Below, piece after piece: positions 1-22,694 of a stretch of DNA of 47,926 nt. The stretch's first letter is position 1; each line of letters opens with the position of its first letter. The notes beneath the pieces were generated by a model. The model had not been told where the DNA came from and made no database searches. It saw only the letters and a program-made list of their open reading frames with translations. Origin of the DNA: Escherichia phage vB_Eco_ZCEC08. The translations under genes were made by a program, and so were the position numbers. The stretch is taken from sequence record PP213477.1, one strand, 5' to 3'.

Positions 1-1425
1 ATGGCTAGAAAAAGACTCTCAAGTGTGGCAATCGAAAAACTTGAACAGGCGGTTGGAAACTCAACTTCAAAGCCTGAGTCTGCTGTATTTGGCATTGTTA
101 ACAAACTGCTTGCCGATGGTACGCCTAATGTTATAAAGCGCCTAAAAATGACATCAACAGGCGTATCTGAAACAAACGAAGAACCAACAATCCTCATTCC
201 CGAGAGAATGGAATTACTGCTTTATCCTCGCCGTTTCAAAGTGTTCTATGGAGGTAGGGGCAGCGGAAAGACGGCTAACGTTGTTTCTTACCTTATAGAA
301 AAGGCAAGATTTCGCAACAGCCGCGTCGGATGTTTCCGTGAGATACAGAACTCAATCAAAGAATCAAGCTATGCCGAACTGGTTGATGAGATAAACAGGA
401 AAGGACACACTCAGGAATATCGTTGCGTGGATGGTGAAATAACCCACCATTCAACGAGGTCAAAGTTTGTTTTCCGTGGTTTGTGGCGAAATATAACCGC
501 CATTAAGGGTATGGCTGGCCTTACAGATGTATTCTGTGAAGAATCAGAAAATATCAGCCAGGTTTCATGGGATACGCTAATCCCAACAGTCCGCGCCGCT
601 GGCTCTGAAATTATTATTGTTTTTAACCCAAACAAAGAGACGGACCCGACATGGACTAACTTTGTTGCGCCTTATATTGACAAGATGGTTGACGGCATAT
701 ATCAGGATGATGACATCGTTGTTGTTAATGTTAATTACATCCACAACCCGTGGTTCACGGAAGAACTTAAGCAGCACATGAACCAGATGAAAGCTGTGGA
801 TTATGATCGCTACCTTTGGGTGTATGAAGGCTTATTCAACAAGCGGTCTGACGAAGCTGTTCTCGGGGGGAAATGGCAAACACTCGACTTTGAACCATCT
901 CCTGAGTGGGGTGGGCCTTACTACGGCATTGACTTTGGTTTTTCTCAGGATGCAACAGCAGCAACTGAATCATATGTAGAAGATTTGGGTGATGGACGAA
1001 GAAACCTGTATATCTATCGTGACTTTGCAAAGGTTGGCCTTGAGATAACTGACACGCCGGAAGCGATGCGCTCAGCATTCCCAAATTCAGAGAAGTACAG
1101 ATGGTATGGGGATTGCGCAAGACCTGAAACAATAAGCCATATACGACGCTCTGGATTCGATATTCATCCGTGCGCAAAATGGCCGGGGAGCATTGAGGAC
1201 GGTATTACGTGGCTGCGTGGGTGTGACAGGATTTACGTGCACTCAAGATGCAGGCACGTCATTGAAGAGATGACAATGTACAGCTATAAGGTGGACAAAT
1301 TAACAGGTAACATACTCCCTGATATAGTTGATAAATACAATCACGCGATTGATAGTTTACGCTATGGACTTGGAGATCACATCGTTCAACGCGGTAGCGG
1401 GATGCTAATCCGGCGCAGGCGATAA
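1..1425 (+). CDS. terL: terminase large subunit
   Basis: 474 aa; P-loop FYGGRGSGKTA near N-terminus; sits upstream of portal; preceded around the circle by candidate terS and an HNH gene. Confidence 0.85.
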   Translation: MARKRLSSVAIEKLEQAVGNSTSKPESAVFGIVNKLLADGTPNVIKRLKMTSTGVSETNEEPTILIPERMELLLYPRRFKVFYGGRGSGKTANVVSYLIEKARFRNSRVGCFREIQNSIKESSYAELVDEINRKGHTQEYRCVDGEITHHSTRSKFVFRGLWRNITAIKGMAGLTDVFCEESENISQVSWDTLIPTVRAAGSEIIIVFNPNKETDPTWTNFVAPYIDKMVDGIYQDDDIVVVNVNYIHNPWFTEELKQHMNQMKAVDYDRYLWVYEGLFNKRSDEAVLGGKWQTLDFEPSPEWGGPYYGIDFGFSQDATAATESYVEDLGDGRRNLYIYRDFAKVGLEITDTPEAMRSAFPNSEKYRWYGDCARPETISHIRRSGFDIHPCAKWPGSIEDGITWLRGCDRIYVHSRCRHVIEEMTMYSYKVDKLTGNILPDIVDKYNHAIDSLRYGLGDHIVQRGSGMLIRRRR

Positions 1426-1441
1426 ATCCGCATCACCACAC

Positions 1442-1470
1442 TTGACCAATCTACACCGAGCGCATAGTAT
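1442..1470 (+). promoter_or_regulatory. sigma70-like promoter (TTGACC - 17 nt - TAGTAT) followed by ATCTACATCA motif
   Basis: hexamers read directly; lies 30 nt upstream of the ATG at 1502. Confidence 0.4.
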
Positions 1471-1501
1471 AATCTACATCAGGATTATCGGAGATATCAC
1501 T

Positions 1502-1708
1502 ATGCGCAGCTATGCAGGATTTACACAGGAGGAAAAAGAACAGGTTTACTCACTGGCGCGGGCTGGTGTGCCAGATGAGGTGATATGCCGTCGGTATGAT
1601 ATTGACGAGGATTTCCTGCTGCGCGTCATTGATGATGTTTTCGTTAACCTGCAGGAGAAGCGCGGGTACAAGGGTATCTGTTGCAAGAATGATTTTTTGA
1701 GAGGGTGA
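1502..1708 (+). CDS. hypothetical protein (68 aa)
   Basis: internal ATG (residue 21 of ORF 1442..1708) preceded by GGAGA; first gene after terL. Confidence 0.45.
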   Translation: MRSYAGFTQEEKEQVYSLARAGVPDEVICRRYDIDEDFLLRVIDDVFVNLQEKRGYKGICCKNDFLRG

Positions 1709-1709
1709 T

Positions 1710-2117
1710 GTGGTTAATAATAAATTAAAGAAAATAATCCGCGATGCTGCGGATAAGAAATACACCAAAAAGATTGATATATCATTCATTGATGGTGCTG
1801 GCCTGTACAATCACGCCTGTCATCTGAATGCAGTAAACAAGGCTCGCGATGGGAGTTCGTGTGCAGTGGTTGAAGTTGTGGTGATTGATGATAAGTCAGT
1901 GATTGCACATTACATCAATATGCAGTCAGATGGCTCTTATGTTGATTACACGCTTGGCTGGCACTGGTCTGGTGCTGATTACAGGTTTGTTCGGTTCGTC
2001 CCGTTTGCCGAGTGGTCGGATATTACAGGTTCGTTAAGCAGACTAAAGGCTGAGCTGTGCAAACCAGTGGCTAAATGGCAGAAGTTGTTAATGATAACTG
2101 ATGGTGAACTTTGTTGA
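1710..2117 (+). CDS. hypothetical protein (135 aa, GTG start)
   Basis: ORF track; GAGGGTGA ribosome-binding site just upstream; stop/start coupled to neighbours. Confidence 0.5.
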   Translation: MVNNKLKKIIRDAADKKYTKKIDISFIDGAGLYNHACHLNAVNKARDGSSCAVVEVVVIDDKSVIAHYINMQSDGSYVDYTLGWHWSGADYRFVRFVPFAEWSDITGSLSRLKAELCKPVAKWQKLLMITDGELC

Positions 2118-2927: not shown

Positions 2928-4340
2928 ATGTCAAAAATTGATGCACTAAACGCTTATATACGCGACCGCGTAGCGAACAATAACCGGGCGATCCAGCAGC
3001 AACGGCTTTGCGCTGGCGGGAAGAATCTGGACCAGAAGCGAGAGTTCATGTGGAAGGAACTTGGCTACCCGCAGGAAATCACCGCCGAGATGTTCCGCTA
3101 TGCCTATGAGCGACACCCAGCCGCCGCCGCTGGAATTAACCGCATTATTAATAAATGTTGGCAGAAATACCCTGAAGTTATCGAAGATGGCGAGGATGAC
3201 AAGAACTCAACGACATGGGAGCTGTCCATCAACGACATGATGAAGCGCGCCTACCCGTTCATCAAGGAGGCTGATAAGCGCAACGCCATCAACCGCTATT
3301 CCGCTGTTATCCTGCAAATCCGTGACGGCAAACAGTGGAGTGAGCCTGTAGACATTACAAAAACCCGCCGCATTAAAGATAAATCCATCGCTCGCTTTAT
3401 TCCGGTATGGGAAGAGCAGCTACGCGTTAGCGCATGGAATAACGACGAAACCAGCGAAGACTACGGGATGCCTGAGATGTACGAATATCAGGAAAGCGCC
3501 GTGGAGGACTTCGATAGCGATGGCAAGCCTGAGCGTTCCGTGCAGATTCACCCTGACCGCATCATCATTCTGGCTGAGGGTAGTTTTGACGGCAGTATGT
3601 TCAGTGGCATCCCGATGTTGCGTGCTGGCTACAATAGCCTTATCGACATGGCTAAGGTTTCAGGTAGTTCAGCAGAAGGATTCCTGAAGAATGCCAGCCG
3701 TCAACTGGCTGTTAACTACACGAAGGACAACGTAACGCCAGCAAGCCTTGCGCAGTCTATGGGTGTCGATATTGAAGAACTCACTGACATCATGAATGAG
3801 AACATCGAAGCGCTAAACTCAGGCATCGACGCAGCTATGTTCACAATGGGGGCGGATGCAAAGGTGCTTGCCGTAACGCCAGCCGACCCGAAACCAACAT
3901 GGGAAGTGGCTGCCAACCAGTTCGCTGCATCAATGGCGCTTCCGTTCACCGTCATTTTTGGTCAGCAAACCGGACGCCTTGCGAGTGATGAGGACAAGAT
4001 GCAGGAGGCGATGACAGCCAAGCAGCGCCGCGAAACGTGGGTTGATTATGTCATCTCAATGTTCGTTGAGCGCATGATTCAGTTCGGCATTGTCGATAAA
4101 GCACCGGCAAATGGCTACAAGGTTAAGTGGGATGATCTGCTTGCCCCATCAGAGCTGGATAAAGCTGAATTGCTGTCCAAGCTCGCCACTGCGAACAAGT
4201 CCTTCTTTGATGCTGGTCAATCTGCACTGCTGACCGTCGATGAAGCTCGCGGCATGGTTGGCATGGAGCCGATTGAGCTTGATGAAAGCTACCGCGAAGA
4301 CACACCACCGGAAGACGAAAATGAAGATACTCCGGTTTAA
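2928..4340 (+). CDS. portal protein
   Basis: 470 aa; position directly after terminase region and before head morphogenesis gene; acidic C-terminus. Confidence 0.7.
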
Positions 4341-5271
4341 CGCAAGACTTCCACAGCCGCGCATATCGCAGAGTCTTACCGACCCATTAGGCGCTGCGGC
4401 TCGCCTGCCGAAGATGGACAAGGTGATAACGCGAAAATACAAACAACTCATGGCTCGTGCGCTCGAGTTGTTTCGCACTATTCCGAGCAGTCAGGCTAAC
4501 GCAGAGTCAAGTGGCCTGTATTTCTACGATTTCAGTAGTGCGCGGGCCGCCACTTTTATGGATGAGTTGCAGGCGCTGATTGACGAGATTCTGCTGGAAG
4601 GTGATGATTTCGGTCACGGCAGGATGTGGGCCAATGTGTTCATCGGTGATGCATATCAGGCGGGAACGCAGAAGGCAAACTCAGAGCTATCAAGTCTTTC
4701 TCCGGTTTATGCTGAACAGCGACCGATTGCTGCGATACTCTACAGTGAGCCTTACCTGAACAGGCTGCAACTGGCGTACACATCCGGATATTCAGACTGG
4801 CGCGGACTGAGTGATTACTCCCGTCAGCAACTGGCATCCGTCATCATGGAAGGTATTGCCCGTGGTGCTAATCCTCGCGATGTTGAAGCTGATATTGTTA
4901 AGCGTGTGGATGTGTCTCATAGCTACGCGAAACAGTTGGCGCAGACTGAAATAACCGGAACGCTGCGACAGGCAAACAGGCGGGAGGTCATTGAGGCACG
5001 CGAAGAGCTAGGCATTGAGACGGTGATGCTGTGGCAGTCGGCATTGATGCGCACAACCCGCCAGACGCACGCGGCGAGACACGGCCGGTTTTACACGCCA
5101 GAAGAGATTGACACGTTTTATAGTGAGAATGGCAATAGATATAATTGCCACTGCGCACAGACTCCGGCTTTGTTAATGGGTGGTAAGCCGGTCATTCTTG
5201 AATCGTCGCAGGGAAGGCTTGATAAGCAGCGAGAAGCATGGCAATCAGCCAACAAAAAGCCCTCCAAGTGA
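4321..5271 (+). CDS. head morphogenesis protein (Mu F / SPP1 gp7-like)
   Basis: start moved to ATG overlapping portal stop; [16 protein letters not shown] resembles the F-family motif. Confidence 0.6.
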
Positions 5272-5290
5272 GGGCTTGGTTTTATTTCGA
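5256..5290. terminator. bidirectional rho-independent terminator
   Basis: AGCCCTC-CAAGT-GAGGGCT then TGGTTTTATTT; stop codon of the upstream gene lies in the hairpin; convergent genes on both sides. Confidence 0.55.
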
Positions 5291-5360: not shown

Positions 5361-6011
5361 TCATTCCTCCAGTTTTACGCCGGGAATCTTGCCTGCCGCG
5401 ATGGCTTCATAAATTAGCTTGGCCTCATCCTCGCGCTTGTAATCTTGAGCTACCATTTCTAACACCGCGCAGATAGACTCAAGTACAGCCTCATGCTTCT
5501 TTTCTGCTTCTGTGCGTAATGGCTTTAGGCTTTCAGGAACGAAGCAGCATGATCGAACAGCACCACCCTCATCCCAGTAGCAAACAGCCACATCGTTTCC
5601 GTCCGTTGTTGTTTTGTGTGCCACAACTTCCATTTCAGTGCCGGCATCAGGAATCCAGGCATTGCGGTATCCTAACTTTGGATTGATGAAGAATTCTACT
5701 TTTGCACCAACTGGAGGTAGGCCTTCGCCGCTCCATGTTGGCTTTTGTGATGCTGCGAGTGCGGATTCGTATTGGCTTCTAGTTACCATTGCCTTCGTAC
5801 TGTCGCATGATAAAACAACATCATTATCAACTCGCCAGTATCCAACTAAACCCTTTCCTGTTCTGTGTCTCCAGCCAAATCCATTGTATCTTGGGTCATC
5901 ATAACGCCAGCAACAGAAATAGCCGTCGGCATCTTGCGTAACCACCACCCAGTTTTCGTTCCACCCACCACGCTTAGGTAATTCTTGAACTAACAGTTCG
6001 ATAAGTTTCAT
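5361..6011 (-). CDS. hypothetical protein (216 aa)
   Basis: ORF track; last gene of a minus-strand cassette. Confidence 0.55.
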   Translation of the reverse strand: MKLIELLVQELPKRGGWNENWVVVTQDADGYFCCWRYDDPRYNGFGWRHRTGKGLVGYWRVDNDVVLSCDSTKAMVTRSQYESALAASQKPTWSGEGLPPVGAKVEFFINPKLGYRNAWIPDAGTEMEVVAHKTTTDGNDVAVCYWDEGGAVRSCCFVPESLKPLRTEAEKKHEAVLESICAVLEMVAQDYKREDEAKLIYEAIAAGKIPGVKLEE

Positions 6012-6012
6012 T

Positions 6013-6264
6013 TCATTCTCCTAGCGCTTTGTTGATTGCACCCTGTGCTGATTTAATCACTTCTGGGTATGCGTCATTCCAGTTTTGCTTATACGCTTTA
6101 CTGAGCATTTTCTGCAAAGCCTCCAGAAGCTCAGGTGCTGCAGCGATGACGTTGGCATCATCCTTATTGGTAACATCGCACACGAATTGGTCGCCATTAC
6201 TATAGACCCCACCAAGTTCATCATCGTAATGCCACGACCCAGGGATTCCTTTAAATTCTTCCAT
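6013..6264 (-). CDS. Ead/Ea22-like family protein
   Basis: motif IAAAPELLEAL...INKALGE shared with ORF 37490..37771; ATG at residue 5 of the track ORF. Confidence 0.5.
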   Translation of the reverse strand: MEEFKGIPGSWHYDDELGGVYSNGDQFVCDVTNKDDANVIAAAPELLEALQKMLSKAYKQNWNDAYPEVIKSAQGAINKALGE

Positions 6265-6272
6265 CACCAACC

Positions 6273-6416
6273 TCACTTAATATATTCAACAATCTCAACT
6301 TCGCGCATCTGCACCAGACTAAATGGCGCAACCACCTTGCCGTACGGACGGATTTTGATTTGCTCAAGGCTGAACATTCTGCGACAACCGCTTTCTTTGA
6401 ATTTGACTATTGCCAT
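6273..6416 (-). CDS. small hypothetical protein (47 aa)
   Basis: hand-translated MAIVKFKESGCRRMFSLEQIK...; not in ORF track; first gene of the minus cassette. Confidence 0.3.
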   Translation of the reverse strand: MAIVKFKESGCRRMFSLEQIKIRPYGKVVAPFSLVQMREVEIVEYIK

Positions 6417-6440
6417 GATTTCTCCCTCACTCATCATTTA

Positions 6441-6477
6441 ATGTAGATACTATGCACCACCACTCAATCTACGTCAA
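6441..6477 (-). promoter_or_regulatory. candidate minus-strand promoter (TTGACG ... TAGTAT) with inverted ATCTAC motifs
   Basis: reverse complement reads TTGACGTAGATTGAGTGGTGGTGCATAGTATCTACAT. Confidence 0.35.
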
Positions 6478-6521
6478 TAGTCATTGTGATAGAATTAATC
6501 ATTATTTGAACTGGAGGCAGA

Positions 6522-6800
6522 ATGAAACTATCGCAACGAGGCGTGGAGACGTTTGGAATTACCGATGCCGTGGATATATCGCCTTACATCACTACCGAGA
6601 CAACGCAGAATCAGTTCGACGCGCTGGCAAGTCTTGCCACCGACATTGGCATTTACGCGTTCCGTAAATCAACGCTTCTGAAGAAGCACAACCTCCGCTG
6701 CTTCTCATGTGCTGTTGCGCATTTCATCGCGTGGGGCGAGAAGACTGGCGACAAAGCAAAACGCAAAGCTGAAAAAGAGGTTTACTGGTATGGCTATTAG
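6522..6800 (+). CDS. hypothetical protein (92 aa) upstream of endolysin
   Basis: ORF track; GGAGG upstream; not hydrophobic enough to call a holin. Confidence 0.45.
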   Translation: MKLSQRGVETFGITDAVDISPYITTETTQNQFDALASLATDIGIYAFRKSTLLKKHNLRCFSCAVAHFIAWGEKTGDKAKRKAEKEVYWYGY

Positions 6801-7254
6801 TAAAAACATGAAGGCGTTTCTGGATATGCTGGCGTACAGCGAGGGCACTGATAACGGGCGGCAGAAAACCAATAATCATGGTTATGATGTGATTGTTGGC
6901 GGCTCACTGTTTACCGACTATTCCGACCACCCGCGCAAGCTGATTAGCCTGCCAAGGCTGGGCATTAAATCCACCGCCGCCGGTCGCTATCAGGTACTGG
7001 CTAAGTTTTATGATGCGTACAAAAAGCAATTGCGTTTACCGGACTTCTCCCCCGCATCGCAGGACGCCATTGCAATGCAGCTAATCCGTGAATGCAAGGC
7101 CACCGCTGATATTGAGGCTGGTCGCATTGCTGATGCCATCCATAAATGCCGCTCCCGCTGGGCCTCATTGCCGGGCGCTGGGTATGGTCAGCATGAGCAG
7201 AAGCTGGATAAGCTGATTCGGGTATACAAAGAGGCTGGCGGAGCTGTGGCATGA
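6790..7254 (+). CDS. R: endolysin, lambda R-like lytic transglycosylase
   Basis: MAISKNMKAFLDMLAYSEGTDNGRQKTNNHGYDVIVGG...WASLPGAGYGQ matches the lambda R sequence as recalled from memory. Confidence 0.85.
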   Translation: MAISKNMKAFLDMLAYSEGTDNGRQKTNNHGYDVIVGGSLFTDYSDHPRKLISLPRLGIKSTAAGRYQVLAKFYDAYKKQLRLPDFSPASQDAIAMQLIRECKATADIEAGRIADAIHKCRSRWASLPGAGYGQHEQKLDKLIRVYKEAGGAVA

Positions 7255-7481
7255 AAAAGCTAAGCAACTGGCTGCTCGCCGCGTGGATTTCATTCTGCTC
7301 GCTGTTACAACTATGGCCTGATGCAATGATGCATGTGTGGGTAATGATGCCGGATGACCTGAAAGCAGCGCTACCGCCAATCGTGGTCAAAGGTGTGAGT
7401 TACTCCATCATGCTTGTCGGCATCCTCGGCAAAATGCACGGCATGAGGAAGGAAAACCGGAGGCTGCGCGATGGTGAGTGA
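7251..7481 (+). CDS. putative holin (two hydrophobic segments)
   Basis: 76 aa; hydrophobic stretches WLLAAWISFCSLLQLW and VSYSIMLVGILG, charged C-terminus; ATGA overlap with endolysin stop. Confidence 0.4.
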   Translation: MKKLSNWLLAAWISFCSLLQLWPDAMMHVWVMMPDDLKAALPPIVVKGVSYSIMLVGILGKMHGMRKENRRLRDGE

Positions 7482-7621
7482 GCAAAGAGATGTATTGGTG
7501 CTGGAATGGGTGCGCATAACCAGCAAGGAAGACAATATTGAGTCGGCGTGGCGCGCACTTAAAAATCGCTCACAATTGGTGCAGTTTGCAACTCGTCGGT
7601 GTTTTATATGGAGGTTGCGCA

Positions 7622-8113
7622 ATGATGTCGATTCTCGCTAAATACTGGCGACTGCTGGCAATTATTATAATTGTTGCTGCCTGCGCGCTATGGATTCGCG
7701 GAGAGGTTATAGACTACGGCGACCAGCGATACGCAGAAGGCAAAGCTCAAGCCATCGCAGACCAGAAGGCTGCAGACAAAAAAGAGGAGCAACGACGCAA
7801 TGCAGAACTGCAAAAGATTCAGTCCGACGCACAGCAAAGGATTGATGCTGCGCGCAATGATGCTGTTAATGCTGCTGCTAAGTCTGGCAGGTTGCAGCAA
7901 CAACTCACCAGTATCCGCAAGCAGCTCGTCGGATATTCCACCGCTGAGTCCATTGGCAACCCAGCCGCAGAAACCGGAGTTTTGCTTGCAGACGTGCTCC
8001 GCAAATCTGTCGAAAGAAATCAACAGCTGGCAGATTACGCTGACAGGGCGAGAGAGGCAGGATTGACGTGTGAGGCACAGTATAATTCTCTGCGTAATAA
8101 AAAAGCCCCGTGA
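7622..8113 (+). CDS. Rz: i-spanin (Rz-like)
   Basis: start at MMSILAKYWRLLAIIIIVAACALW (N-terminal TM segment) after GGAGG; coiled-coil periplasmic part; contains embedded Rz1 frame. Confidence 0.65.
   Translation: MMSILAKYWRLLAIIIIVAACALWIRGEVIDYGDQRYAEGKAQAIADQKAADKKEEQRRNAELQKIQSDAQQRIDAARNDAVNAAAKSGRLQQQLTSIRKQLVGYSTAESIGNPAAETGVLLADVLRKSVERNQQLADYADRAREAGLTCEAQYNSLRNKKAP
7845..8066 (+). CDS. Rz1: o-spanin (Rz1-like lipoprotein) embedded in Rz
   Basis: signal peptide MLRAMMLLMLLLSLAGC with lipobox LAGC; proline-rich mature region; lies wholly inside Rz in another frame. Confidence 0.65.
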   Translation: MLRAMMLLMLLLSLAGCSNNSPVSASSSSDIPPLSPLATQPQKPEFCLQTCSANLSKEINSWQITLTGRERQD

Positions 8114-8128
8114 TGGGGCTTTGTTTTA
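8100..8128. terminator. bidirectional rho-independent terminator
   Basis: AGCCCC-GTGA-TGGGGCT flanked by A-run and T-run; Rz stop codon in the loop. Confidence 0.55.
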
Positions 8129-8147
8129 ACCTTCTCCGTAGCCAATG

Positions 8148-8525
8148 TCACGCATAAAGCGCCTCCATCTTGTACCCAAACATAATTGCATTCTGATGCT
8201 CAGTGCTACCAGAAAACACCAGATAGCGTTTACCTCGATTATCCGTAACGATGTAGGCAGCTGGTGAGTTTTCCTTCCTAAATCTGGCTTCGTCATCACT
8301 CCCTTCATACATCCTCCCACTCGCTGGCAGATACAAATCGAATGTTTGAATTTCCGTTCCGCTGCATTCATTGCTACGTTCATTGAACAGGATAGCCAAT
8401 CTTGGGTTGCCATTGGAATGCTTTGCAGGGAATGCGATTCTCCAGCCATCGTACATATACTGACTTGGGTAGGATAGCCATGACTTACCGCGCCTACCCT
8501 CCGTAAGAATCGGCTTACTCGCCAT
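8148..8525 (-). CDS. hypothetical protein
   Basis: ORF track 8148..8573; start moved to MASKPIL (residue 17) with GGAGG upstream. Confidence 0.5.
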   Translation of the reverse strand: MASKPILTEGRRGKSWLSYPSQYMYDGWRIAFPAKHSNGNPRLAILFNERSNECSGTEIQTFDLYLPASGRMYEGSDDEARFRKENSPAAYIVTDNRGKRYLVFSGSTEHQNAIMFGYKMEALYA

Positions 8526-8790
8526 TATGATCCTCCACAATCCGCACCAGTGAGCACTCAAGATTCGGTGCATTGTAATTACCAGCCAGAAACAGCACGC
8601 TACCAGTGCTAATAAGCACCTGCTTCGCGTTCGCCTGCGACAGATTCTGCACGATGAATTGCGCTGTTTCTGTGCCGATTTTCAGCACTGCGCTGCCGTC
8701 GCTGTTCAGTGATACAAGTTGTGCGGAAGTGTCAGTAATGTTGGTGAAGTTCGCGTTTCGCTGCGCGATTGTGATGTCGCAAAAAGACAT
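8515..8790 (-). CDS. hypothetical protein (91 aa)
   Basis: ORF track. Confidence 0.5.
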   Translation of the reverse strand: MSFCDITIAQRNANFTNITDTSAQLVSLNSDGSAVLKIGTETAQFIVQNLSQANAKQVLISTGSVLFLAGNYNAPNLECSLVRIVEDHNGE

Positions 8791-9092
8791 TATTTAATCT
8801 CTCCGTTCAGTTCATTAACAATTAACGTTGCATAGCCAGCAATATCTTTCCAGCTGTCATCATAAGTCGGGTCGCCATTCAGAATGCGCCCAATCTTGTG
8901 CTGAATCATGTCGAGCGCCTCGCGTTGACTTGGTGTGAGATTGCGCCAGCCATCTACCTCGCGCATCACATCTTTCAACTCCTGCATAATTTCAGCGCCG
9001 TCTTTGAATTTACCGTATCGACTACCGCGTTCGGTGATGAGTCGCTCTGTTGCGTCAGTATGGCGCTTATCGCCCGTGATTTGTGAACTCAT
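8790..9092 (-). CDS. hypothetical protein (100 aa)
   Basis: ORF track. Confidence 0.5.
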   Translation of the reverse strand: MSSQITGDKRHTDATERLITERGSRYGKFKDGAEIMQELKDVMREVDGWRNLTPSQREALDMIQHKIGRILNGDPTYDDSWKDIAGYATLIVNELNGEIK

Positions 9093-12852: not shown

Positions 12853-14606
<1,754 letters not shown>

Positions 14607-14608
14607 TA

Positions 14609-15682
14609 ATGGAAAAGATTATTTTTACCAAAGACCTGGTAGCCAACTCCGCAGTGGTGGCTGACCAGTGGAAACATCTCACCATCGACCGCAAGGTGTT
14701 CTGCAACGCAGAAGCTGAGCTGGCGAAAACTTACGGTGTTAACGCCACTGCACTGGTAACGAAAGATTACTGGCGCGACGTGGATAACGTCACCACCCGC
14801 GTTTTCCGTAACGAAGCTGGTCAGGACATGATGGCCGACCTGATGGGCATCGCGGCAAACATCAATATCGGTAAGACTGTAGCAATCAGCCGCATTGCTT
14901 CCGATGCTGGTAAGGTCGTCCGCACCCTGTCTGGTCAGGAGCCGGAAGATTTGGATAAAACTCGCTACGATTACACTGGCGATGTGATTCCAATCTTCAA
15001 GACTGGCTACAGCCGCGAATGGCGTGAACTGCTGGGTATGCAGTCTGAAGGTTTTGACCCACTGCTGGACGATCAGGCTAACGTTACCTTTAACCTGCGT
15101 TCCGACATGGCGCAGTACCTGCTGACTGGCGACCAGACCCTGAACGTGAACGGCGTTTACACTGGTTACGGTATCACCAACCACCCGAACACTATTCAGG
15201 TTAACCTGAATGCTTCCGGCGGCCTGAATATCGACCTGCAAACCGCAACACCAGATGAAATCGTGACCTTCTTCAATCAGGATTTCCAGGCTATTCTTGA
15301 TGCGCAGAACGTATTTGAGCAGGTGACTCTGTGGGTTTCCCCGGCAGTGCGTCGCAGCTTCATGCGTCCGTATTCTGATGCAGCAGGCTTCAAAGGCGGC
15401 ACAGTTGAGCAGTACATCACGCAGTTCGGCAATGGTCGCATCGGCAAGATTGGCACCAACTTCCTGCTGACTGGTAACCATTTCGTTGGCTATGTTCGCA
15501 ACGACATGTACATCCGTCCGCGTGTTGCTCAGCCTGTCTCCACCTATGCGGCGGCACGTGTCAACCCGCACGATAACTTCAACTTCCTCGTGTGGTCAGC
15601 TTTTGGGCTTCAGGTGAGACGCGATTTTGCAGGGAAGTCAAAAGTGTTTAATGGTTACGGGACGCAAACACCATTGGCTTAA
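14609..15682 (+). CDS. major capsid protein
   Basis: 357 aa; position after scaffold/decoration genes; followed by a strong terminator. Confidence 0.7.
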   Translation: MEKIIFTKDLVANSAVVADQWKHLTIDRKVFCNAEAELAKTYGVNATALVTKDYWRDVDNVTTRVFRNEAGQDMMADLMGIAANINIGKTVAISRIASDAGKVVRTLSGQEPEDLDKTRYDYTGDVIPIFKTGYSREWRELLGMQSEGFDPLLDDQANVTFNLRSDMAQYLLTGDQTLNVNGVYTGYGITNHPNTIQVNLNASGGLNIDLQTATPDEIVTFFNQDFQAILDAQNVFEQVTLWVSPAVRRSFMRPYSDAAGFKGGTVEQYITQFGNGRIGKIGTNFLLTGNHFVGYVRNDMYIRPRVAQPVSTYAAARVNPHDNFNFLVWSAFGLQVRRDFAGKSKVFNGYGTQTPLA

Positions 15683-22617: not shown

Positions 22618-22694
22618 TGGTGGACACGGACGGATTTGAACCTTCAATCAGCCGATTATTAGTCGGTTGCTTTAACCAATTAAGCTACGCGTCC
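22618..22694 (-). tRNA. tRNA-like gene, isotype undetermined (hand fold gives anticodon AAU)
   Basis: minus strand reads GGACGCG-TA-GCTT-AATTGGTTA-AAGC-A-ACCGA-CTAATAA-TCGGC-TGATT-GAAGG-TTCAAAT-CCGTC-CGTGTCC-ACCA: 7-bp acceptor stem (one G.U), 4-bp D stem, T-loop TTCAAAT, encoded CCA; one mismatch each in anticodon and T stems. Confidence 0.5.

Follow-up and report, generated by a model that had tools for sequence, protein, structure and literature searches.

Lysis by phage lambda relies on the S-R-Rz/Rz1 cassette, located downstream of a Q-dependent late promoter, in which the holin releases a soluble endolysin and a spanin then acts, the o-spanin gene being embedded out of frame. The same logic is found in the lysis cassette of Escherichia phage vB_Eco_ZCEC08, but the order holin–endolysin–spanin of lambda is replaced by endolysin–holin–spanin, and the setting is a virulent phage, with the cassette sitting within its divided head-gene region. 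This layout was already described in 2019 for Salmonella phage Skate (MH321493), whose annotation comprises a class II holin, a transglycosylase endolysin, an i-spanin and an embedded o-spanin (PMC6606912), and the ZCEC08 cassette itself was annotated and published in the genome paper (PMC12001532). In the published accounts of both phages the 92-aa ORF that opens the cassette is an active lysozyme, and a 56-aa ORF between the holin and Rz genes (hereafter orf56) is passed over. These two small ORFs are the main subject here; the first is a GH24 lysozyme from which the catalytic lobe has been deleted, and the second is carried by a 151-bp indel with duplicated start signals of the Rz gene.

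The window analysed is the whole stretch of 47,926 nucleotides of record PP213477.1, which is the complete ZCEC08 genome. The cassette is a compact plus-strand unit of ~1.6 kb (6522–8113), in which each predicted ORF was found in place after small corrections (Table 1), and its ORF pattern, as read from the sequence, is not due to chance. Upstream are the genes of TerL (1–1425), the portal (2928–4340) and a Mu-F-like protein (4240–5271), and downstream those of a DUF2213 protein (12853–14139), a decoration protein and the major capsid protein (14609–15682). The placement between head genes given in the initial annotation is therefore right on a coarse scale but not for the immediate neighbours, which are blocks of small minus-strand genes. 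That annotation also called the layout atypical for lambdoid phages, which is true but beside the point, since ZCEC08 is a virulent Skate/E1-like siphophage and not a lambdoid phage. By sequence comparison, gene order and position are the norm in the Skate/E1-like group. The cassette recurs in 166 phage records; Skate, 64795_sal3, C1, KFS-SE2 and ST1UNAM have the same gene content and order as ZCEC08 (for orf56, see below), Skate-group cassettes share 90–97% DNA identity with it, and in Skate and its relatives the cassette likewise comes after the Mu-F-like gene and before the protease/capsid genes.

Table 1. Features of the ZCEC08 lysis cassette, in positions of the window
Feature	Position	Strand	Basis or remarks
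Candidate extended -10 promoter box (TGaTAGAAT)	6487..6495	+	Read from sequence; in 84-bp divergent intergenic region
92-aa ORF, internally deleted GH24 lysozyme (ORF13)	6522..6800	+	Pfam Phage_lysozyme, phrog_10457
Endolysin, 154-aa soluble lambda-R-type lytic transglycosylase, predicted (ORF14)	6790..7254	+	Lambda R homology, phrog_90
Holin, 76 aa, class II, two TMDs, predicted (ORF15)	7251..7481	+	DUF7940, phrog_13249
Left copy of 17-nt direct repeat, GGAGGCTGCGCGATGGT	7459..7475	+	Shine-Dalgarno and ATG; serves the 56-aa ORF
56-aa ORF, basic (pI 10), soluble (ORF16)	7471..7641 (stop included)	+	dN/dS, open frame across copies
151-bp indel between long-form and short-form cassettes	7476..7626	+	Alignment A1
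Right copy of direct repeat, GGAGGTTGCGCAATGAT	7610..7626	+	Ribosome-binding site and start codon for Rz
i-spanin, Rz-like, 163 aa, DUF2514 family	7622..8113	+	DUF2514, phrog_312
o-spanin precursor, Rz1-like, 88 aa	7800..8066	+	phrog_11621, lipobox LAGC
GC-rich hairpin, AAAGCCCCGTGATGGGGCTTT	8102..8122	.	Overlaps Rz stop codon; inverted repeat I5

Genes overlap by 4–20 nt throughout the cassette, and therefore their translation is probably coupled. The unit is delimited by terminators at 5257–5277 and 8102–8122 in the terminator scan and by an invariant upstream region. The GC-rich hairpin at its end, listed on the minus strand by the scan, has a terminator annotated at the equivalent position in Skate, and is likely a bidirectional terminator, at which the cassette would end on one strand and the convergent block of minus-strand genes on the other. 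At the other end, the promoter-like box and its surroundings are invariant among ZCEC08, HC6, L016 and Skate (alignment A5). The box is without a good -35 element and was not listed by the consensus promoter scan, in which promoter-like sites were fewer than in shuffled sequences; by its resemblance to an extended -10 element it may be the promoter of the lysis unit.

Among the lysis proteins of ZCEC08, the endolysin is the only close homologue of a lambda protein. Its likeness to lambda R, noted in the initial annotation, amounts to 66% identity across 154 aa (E 7e-74), so that the two are true homologues, and residues 4–154 match the lambda lysozyme structures 1am7/3d3d (E 6e-62). The catalytic Glu is kept, with Glu19 of the lambda WSEGT motif, the catalytic residue in the lambda lysozyme structures, aligned with Glu18 of YSEGT in ZCEC08. 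Together with the phrog_90 match (PHROGs), these features identify the protein as a lambda-R-type lytic transglycosylase, its chemistry being predicted. A hydrophobicity scan found no hydrophobic segment (maximum KD19 0.38); the enzyme is soluble, without a signal or SAR sequence, and therefore should depend on the holin. Its dN/dS is 0.028, and its gene, opening at ATG 6790, has its first 11 nt in common with the end of the 92-aa ORF.

The holin matches Pfam DUF7940 and phrog_13249 'holin' (E 1.2e-49). By these matches and its topology it is classed as a class II holin, dissimilar to lambda S, and hole formation is predicted. The two transmembrane segments first proposed for this 76-aa protein were recovered by hydrophobicity analysis at residues 6–22 and 44–60, and, on a crude scale applied also to lambda S105, score no lower than its three TMDs. 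A dual-start motif, as in lambda S and S21, was not found at the N-terminus (MKKLSNW, the next Met being residue 26); such a motif is not obligatory among holins. The C-terminal tail is charged (MRKENRRLRDGE), the start of the gene shares 4 nt with the end of the endolysin gene, and the protein is nearly invariant across the 19 loci compared (dN/dS 0.028). DeepTMHMM likewise gave two transmembrane helices, with both termini inside (PMC12001532).

The pair of spanin genes had been recognised from the letters alone as Rz with an out-of-frame embedded lipoprotein gene, and family matches bear this out. For Rz these are DUF2514 (E 4e-30) and phrog_312 (E 1.5e-49), with the start placed at ATG 7622 (the mechanical ORF opens earlier, at TTG 7538). 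An N-terminal TMD at about residues 9–25 (KD 2.44 by hydrophobicity analysis) is followed by a ~138-residue hydrophilic domain rich in Ala, Gln and Arg, a layout that fits a type II inner-membrane protein with a periplasmic domain, and Cys149, near the C-terminus, is kept in the loci compared. The protein gave no match to the Pfam family of lambda Rz (Phage_lysis / Rz), and pairwise identity to lambda Rz is only 24%; ZCEC08 Rz is thus predicted to work like Rz yet belongs to a different i-spanin family. The Rz1 gene lies wholly inside the Rz gene, offset by 178 nt (+1 frame), and its product matches phrog_11621 (E 7.8e-36). A regular expression found the lipobox LAGC with Cys32, Ser at +2 and a mature part of 57 aa, in which a CxxxC motif (residues 62–66) is conserved. 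In 15 related loci LAGC is invariant and the ORF open, and the likeness to lambda Rz1 is confined to the signal peptide. Alignment to the lambda proteins, proposed at the outset as a check, shows a close relationship for R only. Neither outcome named beforehand as refuting, a holin-like ORF devoid of TM helices or an Rz1 frame devoid of a lipoprotein signal, was observed, since the helices and the lipobox are both there, and the functional assignments of the initial annotation are all supported. The pair forms, by its embedded architecture, a two-component spanin with a predicted lipoprotein.

Taken as a whole, the locus is very probably a late lysis operon that follows the standard Gram-negative route with two accessory small genes aboard. 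It would be self-contained, running from the promoter-like box to the hairpin terminator. In a first step, the class II holin would build up in the inner membrane, trigger and form holes; the transglycosylase would then exit through these holes and degrade the murein; finally, the i-spanin, anchored in the inner membrane, and the o-spanin, anchored in the outer membrane, would fuse the membranes or disrupt the outer one.

The ORF that precedes the endolysin gene was correctly located by the initial annotation, which left it and orf56 unexplained; both now have a partial explanation, the first as a GH24 remnant and the second as part of the 151-bp indel. The 92-aa ORF matches phrog_10457 and Pfam Phage_lysozyme, the Pfam match being confined to profile positions 55–114 of 125 (E 1.9e-10). 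When it is aligned with 25 full-length homologues (alignment A3), a gap of ~55 residues covers the FEG...D...TxGYGHT region, in other words the lobe with the catalytic Glu, Asp and Thr. At the same locus in L016, a 146-aa lysozyme is encoded, to residues 69–143 of which the ORF is 45% identical. Its sequence further matches PDB entries 6et6, 8app and 2anv. The AF2 model (pLDDT 95.6) is all-helical and without a beta-hairpin lobe, and therefore has no cleft. Foldseek places the model on the C-lobe of the P22, phage 21 and AbLys1 lysozymes (probability 1.00, TMq about 0.7), with an rmsd of about 2.1–2.5 Å over ~75 residues to 9kbq, 2anv and 9kbt. Compared with GH24 lysozymes of the T4/P22/phage 21 type, the protein shares the helical C-lobe in sequence and fold (32–38% identity), but is without the N-terminal catalytic lobe and also without ~15–20 residues near the C-terminus. 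The ORF is accordingly a GH24 lysozyme with its catalytic Glu/Asp/Thr lobe deleted, a status that appears to be new.

This bears on the published reading, in which the ORF encodes a further, active endolysin (glycosidase or 'glucosaminidase'), so that two hydrolases of the phage would cleave different bonds in murein. Such a reading is held by the ZCEC08 paper, which calls the ORF a lysozyme (PMC12001532), by the Skate annotation ('endolysin/glycosidase, has Ex5Dx8T motif') and by 'glucosaminidase'-type annotations in GenBank and PHROGs; moreover, the match to Pfam Phage_lysozyme exceeds the gathering score (41.6 bits versus 22.3), and the ORF is under purifying selection (see below). It is nevertheless highly improbable, as the Pfam match covers only the part of the profile beyond the absent segment with the catalytic Glu (FEG), Asp and Thr (TxGYGHT), and the all-helical model is devoid of a cleft. 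D15, which aligns with the catalytic Glu, gives way to Y or N in other family members, and E9 pairs with a Glu that is not catalytic in the full-length enzymes. T4L-type enzymes have the canonical catalytic motif E-x8-D/C-x5-T, and in 'Ex5Dx8T' the two spacings stand in the opposite order.

Loss of the catalytic lobe could also mean that the ORF is a decaying pseudogene without function, kept only because ribosomes that start on it, close to the promoter, would go on into the overlapping endolysin gene. The ORF plainly arose from a lysozyme by deletion, its end and the start of the endolysin gene have 11 nt in common, and its dN/dS (0.13 at a dS of 0.37) is 4–5 times that of the endolysin and holin genes. 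However, this value is coupled with a strong third-position bias of the variable columns (21/13/57 by codon position, p=1e-8), and therefore the amino acid sequence is conserved, beyond a mere open frame. All 29 hits at ≥79% identity are exactly 92 aa long, and the structural model is very confident. Decay is thus unlikely, and the sequence is still under purifying selection. The most divergent homologues, P0073 and P0069, come from contigs with fragmented gene calls across the cassette, resembling assembly error.

The origin of the 92-aa ORF is illuminated by sister cassettes, namely those of Escherichia phages HC6, 6947 and Bas81, Salmonella phages D10 and Pu29, and L016. They have a ZCEC08-like promoter region, holin and spanins, and their first gene shares its first 7 codons (MKLSQRG) with the 92-aa ORF. 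Where ZCEC08 has the 92-aa remnant followed by its lambda-R-like gene, the sisters have one catalytically complete 146-aa GH24 enzyme and no R-like gene. The boundaries of this endolysin-module swap are codon 8–9 of the first gene and the holin ATG. In the ancestry that we infer, the 92-aa ORF would be what is left of the ancestral GH24 endolysin of the group, retaining the ancestral promoter, ribosome-binding site and first 7–9 codons, while the catalytic N-lobe would have been deleted when, or after, the lambda-R-like gene arrived downstream. The product would persist as a folded, non-catalytic and still selected protein, for which an accessory or regulatory role in lysis is the best guess.

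The second small ORF had been proposed as a possible ~55-aa ORF bridging holin and Rz; the ORF is there, and its size is corrected to 56 aa. It belongs to a 151-bp segment that is present in ZCEC08, sal3, C1 and CECAV_048 and absent in Skate and ST1UNAM (alignment A1), the exact register of the indel within the 17-nt repeat being arbitrary. Skate and ST1UNAM accordingly have no orf56, and their holin is 79 aa long, ending in DVDSR. In 64795_sal3, 16/17 positions of the two repeat copies are identical. Among the 166 phage records matching the region, the segment occurs in eight, always at the same site, and DNA and tblastn searches over 50,697 phage records found it at the orthologous site only. 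No second copy exists in the ZCEC08 genome or in 5,426 E. coli genomes. The C-terminal end of orf56 corresponds to the tail of the short-form holin. A holin–orf56 fusion by +1 frameshifting, an idea prompted by the 151-nt insert shifting the frame by one, was set aside, there being a stop in the orf56 frame at 7444–7446 and no recognisable slippery site.

The segment might be a non-coding insertion (regulatory RNA, promoter or miniature mobile element) and orf56 not a gene at all. The variable columns are not significantly biased by codon position overall (22/15/28, p=0.14); the bias is confined to codons 23–49 (12/5/17, p=0.04), the N-terminal half showing none (10/10/11), which favours this alternative, as do the high conservation of the 3′ half of the segment as DNA, the lack of homologues anywhere else and the flanking 17-nt duplication, which looks like a target-site duplication. 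On the other hand, codons 23–49 do vary in a codon-like manner, and dN/dS is 0.32 in frame versus 0.85–1.06 when the same DNA is read in its two other frames; like all dN/dS values given here, these are summed over pairs and not phylogenetically independent. The ORF is open in 15/15 DNA copies, and its start perfectly reproduces the Shine-Dalgarno sequence of Rz, spacing included. In protein searches, which recover intact ORFs only and hence have an ascertainment bias, 40 clusters of 73–100% identity were found, 39 of 56 aa and one of 46 aa; three orf56 loci came from a viral contig scan and further loci from exact-protein look-ups. A structured RNA is unsupported, with no Rfam match at E≤1 and an unremarkable fold (z −1.3). 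The single-site occurrence of the segment, with no second copy in ZCEC08, phage records or E. coli, means that nothing points to active transposition, and a mobile-element origin was ruled out on this ground. Local tandem duplication was also ruled out as a source, the 151 bp showing no likeness to the flanking holin and Rz sequences. A non-coding insertion is thus a possible but disfavoured explanation. As a gene, orf56 is weakly constrained and could be a barely constrained by-product ORF.

If translated, orf56 is predicted to form a helical hairpin (AF2 pLDDT 76, helices 2–18 and 23–55), and a hydrophobicity scan found no hydrophobic segment. It matches no family in Pfam, PHROGs, NCBIfam or PADLOC, no fold in PDB or BFVD (Foldseek) and no remote homologue in a profile search of 1.84 billion representatives, and homology to an antiholin, a lysis regulator, or membrane or holin-derived sequence was not found. 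What hints at a part in lysis is solely the location of the gene among the lysis genes. ZCEC08 and ST1UNAM are 98–100% identical per 60-nt bin over 5640–9000, outside a patch at ~7476–7800 that contains orf56 and the 5′ end of Rz, and L016 has orf56 alongside its full GH24 gene. Orf56 passes between phages through recombination, and the endolysin-module and orf56 polymorphisms assort independently. The presence of an ORF on a 151-bp indel with duplicated Rz start signals appears to be new.

In the proposed scenario, a 151-bp insertion would have duplicated the Rz Shine-Dalgarno sequence and ATG, the ancestral form being deduced from parsimony and frequency rather than from a rooted tree. Orf56 would then be exchanged among related phages via homologous recombination and could be lost by deletion between the repeats; it is probably a group-restricted small protein and an optional lysis modulator. 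A bolder proposal is that both small ORFs are uncharacterised working lysis accessories, with the dead GH24 C-lobe as a non-enzymatic partner (e.g. in murein binding or in endolysin/holin modulation) and orf56 as a young, possibly newly arisen, optional timing modulator spreading on a 151-bp cassette with a copy of the translation-start signals at either end. In this full form the proposal is speculative and rather doubtful.

As such, the cassette holds nothing new, being the published module of a therapeutic-candidate phage with the textbook holin–endolysin–spanin route. What changes is the annotation of the first 'endolysin/lysozyme/glucosaminidase' gene in this group of phages (phrog_10457): without the catalytic lobe, its product should be neither counted as an enzyme nor cloned as an enzybiotic. 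The near-isogenic phages ZCEC08 and ST1UNAM, essentially identical over ~3.4 kb apart from the divergent patch, would suit a clean test of the effect of orf56 on lysis timing. More generally, the locus is a natural case of modular exchange in a lysis operon with precisely mapped junctions, in which a full GH24 enzyme alternates with a remnant plus a lambda-R-type endolysin, and a 151-bp small-gene segment is either present or absent.

The lysis cassette of ZCEC08 comprises a 92-aa ORF, an endolysin, a holin, a 56-aa ORF (orf56) and Rz with an embedded Rz1; all ORFs listed in the initial annotation were found in the window, and gene identities and architecture are direct observations. This cassette has already been described as ORFs 13-17 (PMC12001532), and Skate has the same architecture, with a class II holin, an endolysin of transglycosylase type and an i-/o-spanin pair in embedded arrangement (PMC6606912). 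The region is matched by 166 phage records, belonging to a group of siphophages of roughly 45-48 kb that includes Skate, 64795_sal3 (sal3), C1, KFS-SE2 and Bas77-79; its closest phage-collection record is Salmonella phage vB_SenS_ST1UNAM (97%). Phages of this group are virulent and non-lambdoid, and no lysogenic behaviour was reported for ZCEC08 (PMC12001532). The proposed location between head genes holds only at the coarse scale: small-gene blocks, which are the immediate neighbours, separate the cassette from the head genes on both sides; on the 3' side, a minus-strand block is followed by a plus-strand block of small genes before head genes resume. The cassette forms a transcription unit of its own inside a ~7.5-kb accessory region by which the head module is divided. 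This layout is common to Skate, ST1UNAM, sal3, C1 and CECAV_048, and the gene order and location of the cassette are normal for the group. The 84-bp region upstream is nearly invariant among relatives and contains TGaTAGAAT, by its sequence a candidate extended -10 promoter.

Features of the window and of related phage loci (L-numbers), in the coordinates of each sequence
Sequence	Feature	Position	Strand	Remark
Window	TerL	1-1425		upstream of cassette
Window	Portal	2928-4340		upstream of cassette
Window	Mu-F-like head morphogenesis protein	4240-5271		upstream of cassette
Window	Hairpin	5257-5277		after Mu-F-like gene
Window	Block of small genes	5361-6437	-	precedes cassette
Window	TGaTAGAAT	6487-6495
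Window	92-aa ORF	6522-6800	+
Window	Endolysin	6790-7254	+	ATG at 6790; 154 aa
Window	Direct repeat, GGAGGCTGCGCGATGGT	7459-7475		17 nt
Window	orf56	7471-7641	+
Window	151-bp segment	7476-7626
Window	Patch divergent from ST1UNAM	~7476-7800
Window	Direct repeat, GGAGGTTGCGCAATGAT	7610-7626		17 nt
Window	Rz	7622-8113	+
Window	Allelic stretch of Rz	7680-7800	+	residues ~24-45
Window	Rz1	7800-8066	+	fully within Rz, +1 frame
Window	Hairpin	8102-8122		ends cassette; overlaps Rz stop codon
Window	HNH_3 + AP2 ORF, 170 aa	9067-9579	-	within downstream minus-strand block
Window	DUF2213	12853-14139		downstream of cassette
Window	Decoration protein			downstream of DUF2213
Window	Major capsid protein	14609-15682		after decoration protein
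Window	tRNA-Ile, anticodon AAT	22618-22694	-
L012	TnpB-like gene	927-2018		cassette orientation
L012	HNH_3 + AP2 endonuclease-like gene	3728-4228		downstream slot
L013	Tad2-like (anti-Thoeris-type) gene	3808-4071	-	downstream slot
L011	DUF1353 gene	3640-3981		downstream slot
L021, L022	DUF1353 gene			downstream slot

The surroundings of the cassette vary. In L012 (Logan SRR33913808_767), a 363-aa TnpB-like gene (OrfB_IS605 and Cas12f1-like_TNB) is inserted in the 5' leader, after the conserved TGaTAGAAT box and ahead of the 92-aa ORF's ribosome-binding site; it would be a phage-borne solo TnpB, probably transcribed from the lysis promoter. The slot just 3' of the spanin genes also differs among relatives. 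In the window, the 170-aa ORF resembles a homing endonuclease, and its ST1UNAM equivalent is annotated as a homing-endonuclease fragment. The tRNA-Ile gene is the sole tRNA gene found, in agreement with the one tRNA reported for ZCEC08 (PMC12001532).

The claimed closeness of the endolysin to lambda R is borne out by 66% identity and by matches to lambda lysozyme in the PDB (1am7 and 3d3d, E 6e-62). The catalytic Glu of lambda R is kept in the motif YSEGT. Hydrophobicity analysis revealed no hydrophobic leader. Despite this identity, the protein has no Pfam-A match at E<=0.1 and no NCBIfam match, and is recognised only by PHROGs and the PDB sequence search. The 76-aa protein matches Pfam DUF7940 and PHROG holin family 13249, and its two predicted TM helices are supported by hydrophobic stretches (6-22 and 44-60) that, on one crude scale, score no lower than the three lambda S105 TMDs; it has been assigned as a class II holin, with two TM helices and cytoplasmic termini by DeepTMHMM (PMC12001532). 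Rz (DUF2514, phrog_312) has a single N-terminal TMD. The embedded, out-of-frame Rz1 (phrog_11621) does carry the anticipated lipobox: LAGC, followed by Ser at +2, does not vary across 15 related loci. The two outcomes set beforehand as refuting the annotation, a holin-like ORF without TM helices and an Rz1 frame without a lipoprotein signal, were thus checked, and neither refuted it. Relatives carry one of two distinct alleles of the i-spanin's membrane-proximal periplasmic stretch, IRGEVIDYGDQRYAEGKAQAIA and AANKVSSYGEQQYAAGYAKAVA, outside which Rz and Rz1 are similar; the window and the near-identical ST1UNAM have different forms.

In the first gene of the cassette, the 92-aa ORF, the Pfam Phage_lysozyme match is confined to profile positions 55-114 of 125. 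An alignment with 21 further 92-aa members of the family and 25 full-length lysozymes (141-160 aa) showed a gap of ~55 residues in the 92-aa family precisely where the full-length enzymes have their catalytic residues, Glu (FEG), Asp and Thr (TxGYGHT), and a second, smaller gap near the C-terminus; opposite the catalytic Glu, the family has D, Y or N. The Glu of the 'Ex5Dx8T' motif in the Skate record aligns to a non-catalytic position, and the canonical GH24 triad has the reverse spacing. The ORF is nevertheless not decaying despite the loss of its catalytic half: across 16 loci, dN/dS is 0.13 (dS 0.37) and the variable columns split 21/13/57 over the three codon positions (p=1e-8), the other two frames having dN/dS above 1 and many stops, and 29/29 database matches at >=79% identity are exactly 92 aa long. 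Its AlphaFold2 model is an all-helical domain (pLDDT 95.6, pTM 0.88) that superposes on the C-lobe of P22, phage 21 and Acinetobacter phage lysozymes.

In HC6, 6947 and other relatives, a complete 146-aa GH24 lysozyme occupies the same slot, and these phages have no lambda-R-like gene; HC6 and 6947 are assigned to the genus of ZCEC08 (PMC12001532). Both genes start with MKLSQRG, and the C-lobes are 45% identical. In DNA alignments, the modules are bounded by codon 8-9 of the first gene on one side and the ATG of the holin on the other. In our reading, the 92-aa ORF represents the group's ancestral endolysin, which an acquired lambda-type transglycosylase displaced, and this ancestral enzyme lost its catalytic lobe and was kept as a folded non-enzymatic protein. 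Endolysin-module and orf56 polymorphisms assort independently: the full GH24 gene occurs with orf56 in the related locus L016 and without it in HC6, and the remnant plus lambda-R-like gene with orf56 in the window and without it in Skate.

A six-phage alignment placed orf56 on a clean 151-bp indel between holin and Rz; the window, sal3, C1 and CECAV_048 have the segment, and Skate and ST1UNAM lack it. A 17-nt direct repeat flanks the indel (the sal3 copies are identical at 16/17 positions) and consists of the Shine-Dalgarno sequence and ATG of Rz, so that orf56 opens with a duplicate of the Rz start signal. As 151 = 3x50+1, the frame in which orf56 ends and its last residues (DVDSR, then stop) are those of the holin tail in cassettes lacking the segment; where it is present, the holin terminates early (...RLRDGE). 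The segment is rare and without known source: it occurs in only 8 phage records, every time at this site, with no second copy in the window and none in E. coli genomes, and a profile search of 1.84 billion representative proteins found nothing beyond the orf56 family. Between 5640 and 9000, the window and ST1UNAM are 98-100% identical in every 60-nt bin save one patch, formed by the 151 bp and the divergent 5' part of Rz; homologous recombination therefore carries the segment from phage to phage, and the flanking repeat would also allow its precise loss.

The evidence that orf56 encodes a protein is real, if modest. It is open in 15/15 DNA copies, with dN/dS of 0.32 in frame vs 0.85-1.06 in other frames; codons 23-49 have a codon-position bias (12/5/17, p=0.04) that codons 5-22 lack (10/10/11). 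The 40 protein clusters (73-100% identity; 39 of 56 aa, one of 46 aa) come from a search that detects open copies only. Structure prediction gives a basic helical hairpin (pLDDT 76) with no structural matches, and the segment has no Rfam match and no unusual RNA stability. The public annotation is 'hypothetical protein'.

From family membership, the operon would follow the standard three-step Gram-negative route, in which holes formed by the holin release the soluble transglycosylase, this enzyme breaks down murein, and disruption of the outer membrane falls to the spanins. Overlaps of 4-20 nt between the genes suggest that their translation is coupled. The position of the 92-aa and 56-aa proteins suggests a lysis role, probably as dispensable accessories. 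The endolysin is the sole close homologue of a lambda protein: Rz shares 24% identity with lambda Rz but is of a different Pfam family, similarity to lambda Rz1 is confined to the signal peptide, and pairwise comparison found none between the holin and lambda S. The cassette would work as lambda's does, yet except for R it is not built from lambda-family genes. Three points are undescribed in the ZCEC08 and Skate papers, namely that the first 'lysozyme' is catalytically dead and under purifying selection, that the endolysin module comes in alternative versions whose junctions are mapped, and that a 151-bp cassette has a small relative-less gene and duplicated start signals. Their value lies at the level of annotation and not in a new kind of system; the names endolysin, lysozyme and glucosaminidase are misleading for the 92-aa ORF, and pipelines reliant on Pfam-A and NCBIfam would leave the true endolysin without a name and label the dead remnant 'lysozyme'.
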